A stretch of 64,000 nucleotides of DNA, from NCBI RefSeq assembly GCF_058153355.1, contig NZ_CM177019.1; one strand, written 5' to 3'. The position numbers were made by a program, and so were the translations under genes. This document shows positions 19,054 through 40,186 of the stretch, one piece after another. The notes beneath the pieces were generated by a model that was not told where the DNA came from, did not search any database, and worked only from the letters and a program-made list of their open reading frames with translations. How positions within the stretch are numbered: the first letter of the stretch is position 1; every line of letters starts with the position of its first letter.

Positions 19054-21201
19054 ATGAAAAAAGTCGTCACGGTTTGCCCCTATTGCGCATCAGGTTGCAA
19101 AATCAACCTGGTCGTCGATAACGGCAAAATCGTCCGGGCGGAGGCAGCGCAGGGCAAAACCAACCAGGGTACCCTGTGTCTGAAGGGGTATTATGGCTGG
19201 GATTTCATTAACGATACCCAGATCCTGACCCCGCGCCTGAAAACCCCCATGATTCGTCGCCAGCGTGGCGGCAAACTCGAACCTGTTTCCTGGGATGAGG
19301 CACTGAATTACGTTGCCGAGCGCCTGAGCGCCATCAAAGAGAAGTACGGTCCGGATGCCATCCAGACGACCGGCTCCTCGCGTGGTACGGGTAACGAAAC
19401 CAACTATGTAATGCAAAAATTTGCGCGCGCCGTTATTGGTACCAATAACGTTGACTGCTGCGCTCGCGTCTGACACGGCCCATCGGTTGCAGGTCTGCAC
19501 CAATCGGTCGGTAATGGCGCAATGAGCAATGCTATTAACGAAATTGATAATACCGATTTAGTGTTCGTTTTCGGGTACAACCCGGCGGATTCCCACCCTA
19601 TCGTGGCGAATCACGTAATTAACGCTAAACGTAACGGGGCGAAAATTATCGTCTGCGATCCGCGCAAAATTGAAACCGCGCGCATTGCTGACATGCACAT
19701 TGCACTGAAAAACGGCTCGAATATCGCGCTGTTGAATGCGATGGGCCATGTCATTATTGAAGAAAATCTGTACGACAAAGCGTTCGTCGCTTCCCGTACA
19801 GAAGGCTTTGAAGAGTATCGTAAAATCGTTGAAGGCTACACGCCGGAGTCGGTTGAAGATATCACCGGCGTCAGCGCCAGTGAGATTCGTCAGGCGGCGC
19901 GGATGTATGCCCAGGCGAAAAGCGCCGCCATCCTGTGGGGCATGGGTGTAACCCAGTTCTACCAGGGCGTGGAAACCGTGCGTTCTCTGACCAGCCTCGC
20001 GATGCTGACTGGTAACCTCGGTAAGCCGCATGCGGGTGTAAACCCGGTTCGTGGTCAAAACAACGTGCAGGGGGCCTGCGATATGGGCGCACTGCCAGAT
20101 ACTTACCCTGGCTACCAGTATGTGAAAGATCCGGCTAACCGCGAGAAATTCGCCAAAGCCTGGGGTGTAGAGAGTCTGCCTGCTCATACCGGTTATCGCA
20201 TCAGCGAGCTGCCGCACCGCGCAGCGCATGGTGAAGTGCGTGCCGCGTACATTATGGGCGAAGATCCGCTACAAACTGACGCGGAGCTGTCGGCAGTACG
20301 TAAAGCCTTTGAAGATCTGGAACTGGTCATCGTTCAGGACATCTTTATGACCAAAACCGCGTCGGCGGCGGATGTCATTTTACCGTCAACGTCGTGGGGC
20401 GAGCATGAAGGCGTGTTTACTGCGGCTGACCGTGGCTTCCAGCGTTTCTTCAAAGCAGTTGAACCGAAATGGGATCTGAAAACGGACTGGCAGATTATCA
20501 GTGAAATCGCCACCCGTATGGGTTATCCGATGCACTACAACAACACCCAGGAGATCTGGGATGAGTTGCGTCATCTGTGCCCGGATTTCTACGGTGCGAC
20601 TTACGAGAAAATGGGCGAACTGGGCTTCATTCAGTGGCCTTGTCGCGATACTTCAGATGCCGATCAGGGGACTTCTTATCTGTTTAAAGAGAAGTTTGAT
20701 ACTCCGAACGGTCTGGCGCAGTTCTTCACCTGCGACTGGGTAGCGCCAATCGACAAACTCACCGACGAGTATCCGATGGTACTGTCAACGGTGCGTGAAG
20801 TCGGTCACTACTCTTGCCGTTCGATGACCGGTAACTGTGCGGCACTGGCGGCGCTGGCTGATGAACCTGGCTACGCACAAATCAATACCGAAGACGCCAA
20901 ACGTCTGGGTATTGAAGATGAGGCATTGGTTTGGGTGCACTCGCGTAAAGGCAAAATTATCACCCGTGCGCAGGTCAGCGATCGTCCGAACAAAGGGGCG
21001 ATTTACATGACCTACCAGTGGTGGATTGGTGCCTGTAACGAGCTGGTTACCGAAAACTTAAGCCCGATTACGAAAACGCCGGAATACAAATACTGCGCCG
21101 TGCGCGTCGAGCCGATCGCCGATCAGCGCGCCGCCGAGCAGTACGTGATTGACGAGTACAACAAGTTGAAAACTCGCCTGCGCGAAGCGGCATTGGCGTA
21201 A
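19054..21201 (+). CDS. fdhF: Formate dehydrogenase H (selenocysteine-containing, molybdopterin) FdhF; in-frame UGA at 19471-19473 decoded as Sec
   Basis: Track ORFs 19054-19473 and 19522-21201 are in the same frame, separated only by a TGA; merged length is 715 aa; N-terminal Cys cluster CPYCASGC; the UGA sits in CCARV-U-HGPS and is followed by a hairpin. Confidence 0.92.
19474..19515 (+). promoter_or_regulatory. SECIS stem-loop directing selenocysteine insertion at the fdhF UGA
   Basis: Sequence immediately 3' of the TGA (CACGGCCCATCGGTTGCAGGTCTGCACCAATCGGTCGG…) can fold into the stem-loop expected for a bacterial SECIS. Confidence 0.7.
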
Positions 21202-21294: not shown

Positions 21295-21984
21295 ATGAAA
21301 AAAATTATCGCATTGATGTTGTTTTTGACATTCTTTGCCCATGCGAACGGCTCCGAGCCTGGCAGTCAGTATCTCAAGGCTGCAGAGGCTGGAGACCGAC
21401 GCGCACAATATTTTCTTGCCGACAGCTGGTTTAGCTCCGGCGATTTGAGCAAAGCCGAATATTGGGCACAGAAAGCCGCCGACAGCGGTGATGCTGATGC
21501 CTGCGCGCTGTTGGCGCAGATCAAAATCACCAATCCGGTCAGTCTGGACTATCCACAAGCAAAAGTTCTTGCAGAGAAAGCGGCGCAAGCGGGCAGTAAA
21601 GAAGGTGAAGTGACGCTGGCGCATATTCTGGTGAATACTCAAGCGGGTAAACCGGATTATCCAAAGGCGATTTCGCTGTTAGAAAACGCCTCGGAAGATC
21701 TGGAGAACGACTCCGCCGTCGATGCCCAAATGCTGCTTGGTTTGATTTACGCCAACGGCGTGGGCATTAAGGCCGACGATGACAAGGCAACCTGGTATTT
21801 CAAACGCAGCTCTGCGATTTCACGAACCGGTTATTCCGAGTACTGGGCGGGAATGATGTTCTTAAATGGTGAAGAAGGTTTTATCGAGAAGAACAAACAG
21901 AAGGCGCTGCACTGGCTGAACCTGAGCTGTATGGAAGGGTTTGATACCGGGTGTGAAGAGTTTGAAAAATTAACTAACGGTTAA
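21295..21984 (+). CDS. yjcO: Sel1-repeat (TPR-like) periplasmic protein YjcO
   Basis: 229-aa ORF with signal peptide and repeated Sel1-like A-x-Y/W-x-x-K-A-A-x-x-G motifs. Confidence 0.85.
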   Translation: MKKIIALMLFLTFFAHANGSEPGSQYLKAAEAGDRRAQYFLADSWFSSGDLSKAEYWAQKAADSGDADACALLAQIKITNPVSLDYPQAKVLAEKAAQAGSKEGEVTLAHILVNTQAGKPDYPKAISLLENASEDLENDSAVDAQMLLGLIYANGVGIKADDDKATWYFKRSSAISRTGYSEYWAGMMFLNGEEGFIEKNKQKALHWLNLSCMEGFDTGCEEFEKLTNG

Positions 21985-21986
21985 TG

Positions 21987-22250
21987 TAGGCCTGATAAGA
22001 CGCGGTAAGCGTCGCATCAGATATTAATGTCGGATGCGGCGTAAACGCCTTATCCGACCTACAAAATCACCCTAAATCAAGCTATTGCGCAGTCTGGCGT
22101 AGGCCTGATAAGACGCGGCAAGCGTCGCATCAGGCATTGATGTCGGATGCGGCGTAAACGCCTTATCCGACCTACAAAATCACGCTAAATCAGGCTATTG
22201 CGCAGTCTGGCGTAGGCCTGATAAGACGCGGCAAGCGTCGCATCAGGCAT
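21987..22250. repeat. BIME/REP array: five REP palindromic units in alternating orientation, about 113-bp period
   Basis: Repeated units TAGGCCTGATAAGACGCGGCAAGCGTCGCATCAGGC and GTCGGATGCGGCGTAAACGCCTTATCCGACCTAC, with near-identical 113-bp repeats starting near 21987, 22100 and 22213. Confidence 0.85.
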
Positions 22251-22288
22251 CCACACATTGCCGGGTGTATGTCCCCGGCAATCCTCAA

Positions 22289-23602
22289 TTATTGATCCGC
22301 AGTTTTATCAAATTTGCCCAGCACTTCGCGCTCATAAGCCAGCGCTTTCTTACGGTCAAATTTGTGTTCCCACTTGGCAATCACCAGCACCGCCAGCGCA
22401 TTACCCACCACGTTCAGCGCAGTACGCGCCATGTCGAGGATACGGTCAACACCGGCAATAAACGCCAGACCTTCCAGCGGGATCCCTACGCTGCCCAGCG
22501 TTGCCAGCAACACCACAAACGACACGCCCGGCACGCCAGCAATCCCTTTCGAGGTCACCATCAGCGTCAGCACCAGAATGATTTCCTGCCAGATGGACAG
22601 GTCAATACCATACAGTTGAGCGATGAAGATAGCGGCAATACTTTGATATAGCGTTGAACCATCAAGGTTAAAAGAGTAACCGGTCGGCACCACGAAACTG
22701 GTGATCGACGCCGGTGCACCGTAGGCTTCCATCTTCTCAATAATTCGCGGCAGCACGCTTTCAGAACTGGCAGTGGAGTACGCCAGAATCAGCTCATCTT
22801 TCAGAATACGAATCAGGATCCAGACGCTTAACCCGCACAGGCGCGCCACAATTCCCAGCACTACCAGCGCGAAGAACAGAATGGCGAAATGCACCAGCAG
22901 CACCAGTTTCGCCAGTGGCCACAGAGACGAGAAACCAAAGTTAGCCACCGTCACCGCAATCAGCGCAAACACACCTACCGGCGCGTAACGCATCACCATG
23001 TGAGTCACTTTAAACATGGTTTCAGAAATGGAGCGGAACACGGTCACCAGCGGTTCACGATGCGTTGCGGGCAGGGAGGAAAGCCCCAGACCAAACAGTA
23101 CCGAGAAGAAGATGATCGGTAACATTTCGCCTTTCGCCATCGACGCCACAATATTCGTCGGCACCAGAGACAAAATCGTGCCCATAATACCGTGGGAACT
23201 GCTCTGTACCGCTTCTGTAGTGCTCTGATATTTCGAGATATCGACGGTCGCCAGCTGCGACATATCCACCCCGGCACCGGGCTGGAAGACGTTCGCCAGG
23301 GTGATCCCCAGAATGATGGCGACAGTGGTGATCACCTCGAAATAGATAATGGTTTTCGCGCCAATACGCCCGAGCTGTTTGGCATCACCAACACCCGCGA
23401 TACCCACCACCAGCGTGGAGATCACAATCGGCACAACAATCATTTTGATCAGATGGATGAAGATATCACCCGCCGGAGAGAGCAAATTGACGACCAGCCA
23501 TTCGCGACTGTCGCTATGGTAGTGCAGGTAGCTTCCCAGGAGAATGCCCAGCACCATAGCAAACAGAATCTGCCAGGCCAGGCTGAATTTTATATTTTTC
23601 AT
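22289..23602 (-). CDS. gltP: Proton/glutamate-aspartate symporter GltP
   Basis: 437-aa polytopic membrane ORF recognised as GltP (dicarboxylate/amino-acid:cation symporter family). Confidence 0.92.
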   Translation of the reverse strand: MKNIKFSLAWQILFAMVLGILLGSYLHYHSDSREWLVVNLLSPAGDIFIHLIKMIVVPIVISTLVVGIAGVGDAKQLGRIGAKTIIYFEVITTVAIILGITLANVFQPGAGVDMSQLATVDISKYQSTTEAVQSSSHGIMGTILSLVPTNIVASMAKGEMLPIIFFSVLFGLGLSSLPATHREPLVTVFRSISETMFKVTHMVMRYAPVGVFALIAVTVANFGFSSLWPLAKLVLLVHFAILFFALVVLGIVARLCGLSVWILIRILKDELILAYSTASSESVLPRIIEKMEAYGAPASITSFVVPTGYSFNLDGSTLYQSIAAIFIAQLYGIDLSIWQEIILVLTLMVTSKGIAGVPGVSFVVLLATLGSVGIPLEGLAFIAGVDRILDMARTALNVVGNALAVLVIAKWEHKFDRKKALAYEREVLGKFDKTADQ

Positions 23603-32678: not shown

Positions 32679-32795
32679 TGCCGGATGCGATCCGGGCAAC
32701 AAGTCGGAAACGATTTGTAGGCCTGATAAGACGCGACAGCGTCGCATCAGGCATTGATTGCCGGATGCGGCGTATAACGCCTTATCCGGCCTACA
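32679..32795. repeat. REP palindromic units between acs and yjcH
   Basis: TAGGCCTGATAAGACGCGACAGCGTCGCATCAGGC and GCCGGATGCGGCGTATAACGCCTTATCCGGCCTAC. Confidence 0.8.
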
Positions 32796-40044: not shown

Positions 40045-40186
40045 ATCAACACCAACCGGAACCTCCACCACGTGCTCGAATGAGGTGTGTTGACGTCGGG
40101 GGAAACCCTCCTGTGTACCAGCGGGATAGAGAGAAAGACAAAGACCGGAAAACAAACTAAAGCGCCCTTGTGGCGCTTTAGTTTTG
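40045..40186 (+). ncRNA. ryjA: Small RNA RyjA (SraL), converging on the soxR 3' end
   Basis: Known K-12 sRNA location between ghxP and soxR on the strand opposite soxR; a TACAAT -10-like element near 40033-40038; ends at a hairpin TAAAGCGCC-CTTGT-GGCGCTTTA plus GTTTTGTT that overlaps the soxR stop. 5' end is approximate. Confidence 0.45.

Follow-up and report, generated by a model that had tools for sequence, protein, structure and literature searches.

What kind of repeat fills the gap between the convergent genes yjcO and gltP, how did it reach its present size, and what might it contribute to the two genes beside it? The DNA analyzed here, referred to below as the window, is a stretch of 64,000 nucleotides from contig NZ_CM177019.1 (assembly GCF_058153355.1), in which a repeat array takes up most of the 304-bp gap between these genes. 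The initial annotation described a tandemly amplified BIME array of five REP units in alternating orientation, with a unit of approximately 113 bp present in about 2.3 near-identical copies.

Layout of the array and its flanks

Tandem Repeats Finder placed a 113-bp period at positions 21986 to 22250, with 2.3 copies, 96% matches, 0% indels, and a score of 488. A gapless repeat search found two 113-nt copies of 95% identity and a 35-nt REP core that occurs three times at spacings of 113 and 113. The unit length and copy number first described are thereby borne out; of the original range, 21987 to 22250, the end holds and the start is off by one base. Copy 1 matches copy 2 at all but 6 of 113 positions, while the partial third copy equals copy 2 over its first 39 nt and then passes into unique sequence. 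A 44-nt string spanning tail, linker, and tail is present twice in the window and in none of 100 dinucleotide-preserving shuffles, and a chance origin of this repeat is excluded.

Pattern matching identified five REP-like palindromes of types Z2-Y-Z2-Y-Z2 in the orientations -, +, -, +, -, in agreement with the five alternating REPs of the initial annotation. An inverted-repeat search with a seed of 9 returned no inverted pairs at the array, because the REP stems are short and interrupted, and the palindromes were shown instead by pattern matching and RNA folding. Read on the plus strand, the 113-bp unit opens with a Z2-type REP, its GTAG end leading (GTAGGCCTGATAAGACGCGGCAAGCGTCGCATCAGGC). 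A Y-type REP (GTCGGATGCGGCGTAAACGCCTTATCCGACCTAC) follows across a short head-to-head linker, and a tail-to-tail linker of 36 nt (AAAATCACGCTAAATCAGGCTATTGCGCAGTCTGGC) completes the unit. The array closes with an extra Z2 REP.

REP 1 (Z2 type; 21986 to 22025, minus strand), recognized by pattern match and by alignment to REP325 and the canonical Z2, turns its GTAG end toward yjcO. Its outer stem is weakened, reading CAGATAT rather than CAGGCAT, and its RNA hairpin folds at -15.2 kcal/mol (z, -3.7). REP 2 (22025 or 22029 to 22062, plus strand) is a locus-specific variant of the Y type with a hairpin of -19.2 kcal/mol (z, -5.7), and it is followed by the first copy of the 36-nt linker (22063 to 22098). 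REP 3 (Z2 type; 22099 to 22139, minus strand) folds at -21.8 kcal/mol (z, -5.6), and REP 4 (22138 or 22142 to 22175, plus strand) is of the same Y variant as REP 2; REPs 2 to 4 were all recognized by pattern match and alignment. The second copy of the linker (22176 to 22211) leads to REP 5 (Z2 type; 22212 to 22252, minus strand; pattern match), which forms the terminal partial unit and is the sole REP kept in single-REP alleles, as seen in a fetched allele. The linker occurs in two variants, A (AATCAAGCTATTG) and B (AATCAGGCTATTG). In every unit of the array the Y REP reads GTCGG...CCGAC as opposed to the canonical GCCGG...CCGGC, so that the outer stem pair is altered on both sides. The REP cores align column for column with the REP325 units of Escherichia coli MG1655 and with a canonical Z2-S-Y pair at window positions 32720 to 32794.

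On the yjcO side, the array is preceded by a 229-amino-acid open reading frame (21295 to 21984, plus strand) for a Sel1/TPR-like repeat protein, whose homologous stretch is annotated as yjcO in E. coli genomes. Its stop codon lies at 21982 to 21984, and the first REP starts 1 nt later. On the other side, a 437-amino-acid open reading frame (22289 to 23602, minus strand) is annotated in homologous regions as gltP, encoding the glutamate/aspartate:proton symporter. The annotation of both genes covers homologous DNA in thousands of E. coli genomes, and together with the flanking open reading frames it confirms the location between yjcO and gltP. A stem-loop that is not a REP (ATTGCCGGG/CCCGGCAAT; 22258 to 22283) has a 9-bp stem, lies 5 nt past the gltP stop codon, and folds at -17.5 kcal/mol on the gltP strand and at -15.4 kcal/mol on the other. 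Its stem is invariant and its loop variable in all E. coli alleles inspected, as well as in Escherichia whittamii and Escherichia sp. E1V33. No T-run follows this stem-loop, and the terminator scan makes no call there. It is probably the 3' stem-loop of the gltP mRNA and, since it is without a T-run, it probably serves as an mRNA 3' stabilizer rather than as a classical terminator.

Elsewhere in the window, a SECIS_2 element (Rfam; 87.9 bits) at 19466 to 19520 lies just upstream of a 559-amino-acid open reading frame (19522 to 21201). This reading frame is the C-terminal part of fdhF, which the list of open reading frames splits at the selenocysteine UGA codon. The Hfq-binding small RNA sraL (RF01408; 153 bits) was found at 40045 to 40185 on the plus strand.

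Class membership and known relatives

BIME-2 elements are tandem arrangements of Y and Z2 REPs joined through a short S linker, with an s, l, or r motif at the flanks; their linkers vary in length and sequence, and their copy number differs from locus to locus and, at any one locus, from strain to strain (Ton-Hoang 2012, PMC3333891). They have also been described as "two to twelve Y and Z2" (Chiapello 2005). In the array of the window, three Z2 and two Y cores align with these types, the Y being a variant, and successive REPs alternate between REP and iREP orientation. The head-to-head linker measures about 8 to 12 nt, depending on where the REP edge is drawn, and the tail-to-tail linker is 36 nt long and specific to yjcO-gltP. 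The array holds 5 REPs in the window and from 1 to 13 full REPs in the inspected alleles. Going by the REP types, their alternating orientation, the short head-to-head linker, and the tandem copies, we assign the array to the BIME-2 type. The 77-nt doublet of REPs 3 and 4 (22099 to 22175) also has the form of a REPIN, two inverted REPs folding as one unit, and the list of open reading frames of the window contains no RAYT (tnpA_REP) gene near the array.

EcoCyc lists REP321a-k as eleven REPs, predicted to be RAYT-associated REPINs, less than 15 nt from the upstream gene. The gltP-yjcO region of MG1655 carries 5.3 units, equal to 11 REPs, and matches this entry. The MG1655 RefSeq record has no repeat_region feature at yjcO-gltP, and the name REP321 is therefore inferred from the literature. 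The same BIME of MG1655, under the name "B319," is a substrate of TnpA_REP with four cleavage sites in its linkers in vitro (Ton-Hoang 2012, PMC3333891). The window array shares with the K-12 element the locus, the flanking genes, the 113-bp unit, the 36-nt linker, and the Y variant. It differs in having 2.3 units (5 REPs) rather than 5.3 units (11 REPs) and in a few unit-specific single-nucleotide polymorphisms, and the variant of its first copy, with a GGTAAG loop, CAGATAT, and the linker CACCC...TCAAG, is not found in K-12 REP321. We estimate a probability of about 0.85 that the array is the allele of REP321 (gltP-yjcO) carried by the strain of the window, a reading that includes local stepwise amplification and a role inferred from the class. 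As such, the yjcO-gltP BIME-2 array is already known and ordinary, having been annotated in K-12 and used in published biochemistry.

The second close relative is REP325, located between yjdM and yjdN. Like the window array, it consists of tandem doublets of Z2, short linker, and Y with a constant spacer, with a unit identity of 96% in REP325; the REP cores of the two arrays align, and one Rfam model matches both. In contrast to the window array, REP325 has a 100-bp period, an unrelated tail-to-tail spacer of about 20 nt, a longer head-to-head linker, and a canonical Y REP (GCCGG...CCGGC), and it lies inside an operon between codirectional genes, whereas the window array lies between convergent genes.

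The predicted folds are strong. For individual REPs the fold energies are -15 to -22 kcal/mol (z, -3.7 to -5.7), whichever strand is folded, and the 77-nt Z2/Y doublet reaches -40.6 kcal/mol (z, -6.4), with GTAG and CTAC closing the fold. Measured against shuffles, the whole yjcO-gltP gap has a fold z score of -9.0 on the plus strand and -6.7 on the minus strand. A consensus scan of the gap found no canonical intrinsic terminator, that is, no hairpin with a T-run, and a plain intrinsic bidirectional terminator was rejected on this ground. The consensus scan likewise found no promoter-like site inside the gap or the array.

The only Rfam family that matches the array is naRNA4 (RF02564). On the minus strand, which is the gltP-sense strand, the covariance model scores 79 bits at 22102 to 22172, which comprises REP 3 and REP 4, and 68.1 bits at 21989 to 22059, both above the gathering score of 59.5, and there is a third, partial match of 46 bits. 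The scores on the plus strand, 48.8 and 39.5 bits, fall below the gathering score. The remark in the initial annotation that such arrays are easily mistaken for other repeat classes is thus apt, as Rfam calls two of the units naRNA4. The same model matches at 76.9 bits (32720 to 32791, minus strand) a lone canonical BIME-2 doublet of Z2, short linker, and canonical Y at window positions 32720 to 32794.

Could the array then be a cluster of naRNA4-like small RNA genes, the doublets of which yield an HU-binding RNA that condenses the nucleoid, as once proposed for REP325 (Qian 2015, PMC4550694)? The scores above the gathering threshold on the gltP-sense strand, the organization into Z2-linker-Y units that REP325 shares (Qian 2015, PMC4550694), and the two-hairpin shape that the doublet takes when folded are all consistent with that proposal. 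However, naRNA4 was defined from REP325, an array of six units, each with a linker between its Y and Z2 and with a spacer of constant form between units (Qian 2015, PMC4550694), and because the model also matches the lone pair at 32720 to 32791, it is in effect a model of any BIME-2 doublet. The Rfam match is a quantitative statement that BIME-2 doublets are present and not evidence for a small RNA gene. The premise has also been revised: REP325 and naRNA4 were found to give no measurable nucleoid compaction and no stable ternary complex of HU, DNA, and RNA, by authors who include the senior author of the original proposal (Harris 2026, bioRxiv 10.64898/2026.03.23.713779). With a locus that has no internal promoter-like site and that is without any doublet in half of E. 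coli genomes, we consider a cluster of small RNA genes very unlikely.

A related question is whether the array is an IHF-binding, DNA-bending RIB/RIP (BIME-1) element at the 3' ends of the transcription units, since the initial annotation held that such arrays bind both gyrase and IHF. BIME-1/RIB/RIP elements resemble the window array in having two inverted REPs around a linker of about 35 nt that is able to carry an IHF consensus and in being placed at the 3' ends of transcription units (Boccard and Prentki 1993, via PMC3333891). The IHF core consensus (WATCAANNNNTTR) has one perfect match in the array, in the linker of copy 1 (22075 to 22087; AATCAAGCTATTG), and a site with one mismatch (ATCAGG) in the linker of copy 2, and the unit variant with the perfect core recurs in other strains. 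Against this, the mismatched ATCAGG form is present in most alleles, including those of K-12, family B (described below), and other Escherichia species. A 13-nt core by itself is weak evidence, because the window holds 10 perfect matches compared with 2.4 (standard deviation, 1.5) expected from shuffles. It is the L linker of single-copy BIME-1 elements, made of Y and Z1, that binds IHF (Ton-Hoang 2012, PMC3333891), whereas gyrase binding is a property of the tandem BIME-2 elements, made of Y and Z2 (Ton-Hoang 2012, PMC3333891; Sutormin 2018). The array of the window has Z2 rather than Z1 REPs, is tandem rather than single copy, and carries a linker unique to its locus instead of the conserved L linker common to several loci. 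The BIME-1 element was therefore rejected as an explanation, given also that the core is perfect in copy 1 only, and we regard such an identity as highly improbable. Of the earlier statement, the gyrase part stands at the level of the BIME-2 class, while the IHF part belongs to the BIME-1 linker; judged from the motif, IHF binding at the array itself is possible but unsupported. A CRISPR-like array, or another class of regularly spaced repeats, could be suspected from the repeats of about 35 nt at regular spacing, but the would-be spacers are two sequences that recur, identical between units, adjacent repeats are inverted relative to each other rather than direct, and the neighbors are fdhF, yjcO, gltP, and nrfG, with no cas genes among them. 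This candidate is refuted by the sequence. For annotation, the array should accordingly be reported neither as a small RNA gene cluster on account of its naRNA4 matches nor as CRISPR-like.

Length variation and origin of the array

A census of the locus used the two flanks alone as a query, with the span of the match giving the length of the insert. One joined flank match was obtained in 5,329 of 5,426 complete E. coli genomes, and insert lengths were read from a systematic sample of 59 genomes. In this sample the insert ranges from 39 bp, with 1 REP, to 788 bp, with 13 REPs and one truncated REP. The most frequent length is about 39 bp (one REP; 25 genomes), followed by 491 bp (8 genomes), 449 bp (6 genomes), about 151 bp (4 genomes), and 138 bp (4 genomes, all O157). 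The length found in the window, 265 bp, occurs in 3 genomes, as does 378 bp; 108 bp and about 673 bp occur in 2 genomes each, and 221 bp and 788 bp in 1 genome each. The allele inserts of 39, 152, 265, 378, and 491 bp are separated by steps of 113 bp.

The parsed examples that were fetched fall into two allele families. Family A, to which the alleles of the window and of K-12 belong, has a Z2 REP at both ends and contains 1, 3, 5, 9, or 11 REPs. In family B the first Z2 is internally deleted and the last Z2 is absent, and these alleles contain 1, 3, 7, 11, or 13 REPs in steps of whole 113-bp units. The O157 allele is decayed, with three REPs and a 24-nt linker.

The 36-nt linker provides an independent count. 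Of the 5,426 complete E. coli genomes, 2,814 carry it, each at 1 to 9 places (median, 4; total, 9,707), and across E. coli genomes it was found only at yjcO-gltP. In each inspected genome the number of linker places equals the number of units at the locus (5 in MG1655, 4 in J53, 3 in DH5alpha, 7 in SSGw2, and 1 in E17). The share of genomes free of the linker, 48%, agrees with the sample, where 29 of 59 alleles are of the single-REP or O157 kind, and about half of E. coli genomes have a single REP at yjcO-gltP. The statement that copy number can vary between strains is well founded, with inserts of 39 to 788 bp in the 59 sampled genomes and 0 to 9 linkers per genome in the 5,426; the comparison of copy number across E. 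coli genomes that had been proposed as a check was run at this locus and revealed large variation in unit number. Some of the copy number differences between assemblies could result from collapse of the repeat during assembly. Plasmid-labeled records in the E. coli collection yielded 6 linker places and 5 yjcO/gltP flank matches, which are possibly chromosomal segments on F-prime-like plasmids or mislabeled replicons.

Array size also differs among K-12 derivatives, with 5.3 units in MG1655, 4.3 in PG20180061, 4.3 in J53, and 3.3 in DH5alpha. Loop markers show that the steps among MG1655, PG20180061, and DH5alpha each correspond to one in-register [Z2(TT)-Y(CAT)] unit gained or lost, and the J53 genome paper reports that "a part of REP321" was lost relative to MG1655. 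The two unit variants of the window array stand in the order A-B, and in the reverse order, B-A, in other 2.3-copy alleles. The window allele therefore did not arise by simple copying of one of these and needs more than one exchange event. Three genomes with flanks 99.5 to 99.6% identical to those of the window have one REP only.

Beyond E. coli, the linker was found at yjcO-gltP in E. whittamii, with 4 REPs, and in Escherichia sp. E1V33, with 10 REPs. A scan for the exact linker pattern in one genome per bacterial species detected it nowhere outside Escherichia except on one contaminating contig. The array predates E. coli as a species and, so far as the exact-pattern scan shows, is confined to Escherichia. 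The contig in question (NZ_JAAIYA010000177.1, positions 1 to 240) is part of the Pyxidicoccus caerfyrddinensis assembly, is 240 bp long at 0.53x coverage, and consists entirely of REP321 units that bear the K-12-specific markers GGCATAAAC and GTTAAG. Laboratory E. coli DNA has almost certainly contaminated this myxobacterial assembly.

Allele comparisons show that the array arose once at yjcO-gltP, before the split between E. coli and its sister Escherichia lineages, with later expansions and contractions by whole 113-bp units. Unequal homologous exchange in register, or replication slippage, between 113-bp units would account for the changes in size. Cleavage and rejoining assisted by TnpA_REP may contribute to changes in unit number; transposase-assisted amplification of BIMEs has been proposed (Ton-Hoang 2012, PMC3333891), and such local amplification is a possible route beside plain recombination. 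A different origin would be repeated and independent transposition of REPs or REPINs by RAYT/TnpA_REP, with no tandem duplication. RAYT is thought to mobilize REP doublets, REP321 is predicted in EcoCyc to comprise RAYT-associated REPINs, and TnpA_REP cuts the gltP-yjcO BIME in vitro (Ton-Hoang 2012, PMC3333891), all of which would fit insertion. Yet the 36-nt linker occurs nowhere else in E. coli genomes or in the window, the locus-specific Y variant is common to all units, and the sizes of alleles differ by exact multiples of 113 bp. These three features contradict repeated independent insertion as the origin of the array, and we give it very little credence. Local amplification is preferred because the private linker was copied and the register kept, and the locus-unique linker makes this array clean evidence for the growth of BIME-2 arrays through tandem amplification in place and against growth through repeated insertion.

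Predicted role and significance of the polymorphism

Most of what can be said about function comes from relatives of the array. REP325 is a partly Rho-dependent terminator and mRNA stabilizer, and its transcripts form a ladder of products that end in hairpins; where REPs separate convergent genes, their presence correlates with stronger expression of both (Harris 2026, bioRxiv 10.64898/2026.03.23.713779). Some BIME-2 elements, though not all, show an enrichment of gyrase cleavage sites, mainly at Y REPs and independently of transcription (Sutormin 2018); the accessible part of the supplement to that study names neither gltP nor yjcO. By analogy, the array is likely to serve both genes as a common 3'-end element, with RNA hairpins that form a barrier and terminate transcription in part, and to be a gyrase site, with termination, stabilization, and gyrase binding at yjcO-gltP extrapolated from REP325 and the BIME-2 class. 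Placed at the 3' end of either gene's transcript, the hairpins would block 3'-5' exonucleases and, as expected from the class, would attenuate read-through in a partly Rho-dependent manner, so that each gene would be insulated from antisense transcription. The Y REPs would be preferred gyrase cleavage sites that absorb the positive supercoils of convergent transcription. The first REP, 1 nt past the yjcO stop codon, is within the 15 nt reported to affect upstream translation and may dampen translation of yjcO. In a genomic-SELEX paper on RpoD, yjcO is listed for the yjcO/fdhF spacer only, not for the yjcO-gltP array.

The extra units are dispensable, because about half of E. coli genomes keep one REP and the gltP stem-loop, and this dispensability speaks against a function that scales with dose. 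Differences in unit number are most likely near-neutral. It is conceivable, though we think it improbable, that unit number, by setting the count of hairpins or gyrase sites between yjcO and gltP, instead acts as a heritable, reversible dial on 3'-end formation, mRNA stability, or local supercoiling of the two convergent genes, making this a contingency-like locus. In favor of such a dial, the array persists across Escherichia species and changes among K-12 laboratory derivatives, and REP325 yields its ladder of hairpin-terminated transcripts (Harris 2026, bioRxiv 10.64898/2026.03.23.713779).

As a textbook BIME-2, of a class long known for variable copy number, the array itself carries little biological weight. 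The locus is nevertheless strongly polymorphic in length, with 1 to at least 13 REPs in 113-bp steps and two allele families, and differs among K-12 stocks too. This polymorphism explains why resequencing studies repeatedly call "gltP/yjcO intergenic" variants, and it could be used as a simple marker to tell strains apart.

Several published calls fall in this region. In the MG1655 reference, the first Y REP lacks 2 bp (GGATGCGGTAAAC rather than GGATGCGGCGTAAAC), which gives unit 1 a length of 111 bp, and the CG missing from its loop coincides with a call of "+CG at 4,296,380, frequency 1.0." Studies using breseq list +CG at 4,296,380 and a partial-frequency C>T at 4,296,060 for MG1655 ancestors. 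These two calls look like a reference discrepancy and mismapping in the repeat and not like evolution. In a study of ampC amplification in E. coli K-12, a 164-kb amplicon and an 86-kb duplicon both have a junction in the gltP/yjcO intergenic region (PMC12625342), with REPs going unmentioned by the authors; a natural explanation would be recombination between REP arrays where the segments join.
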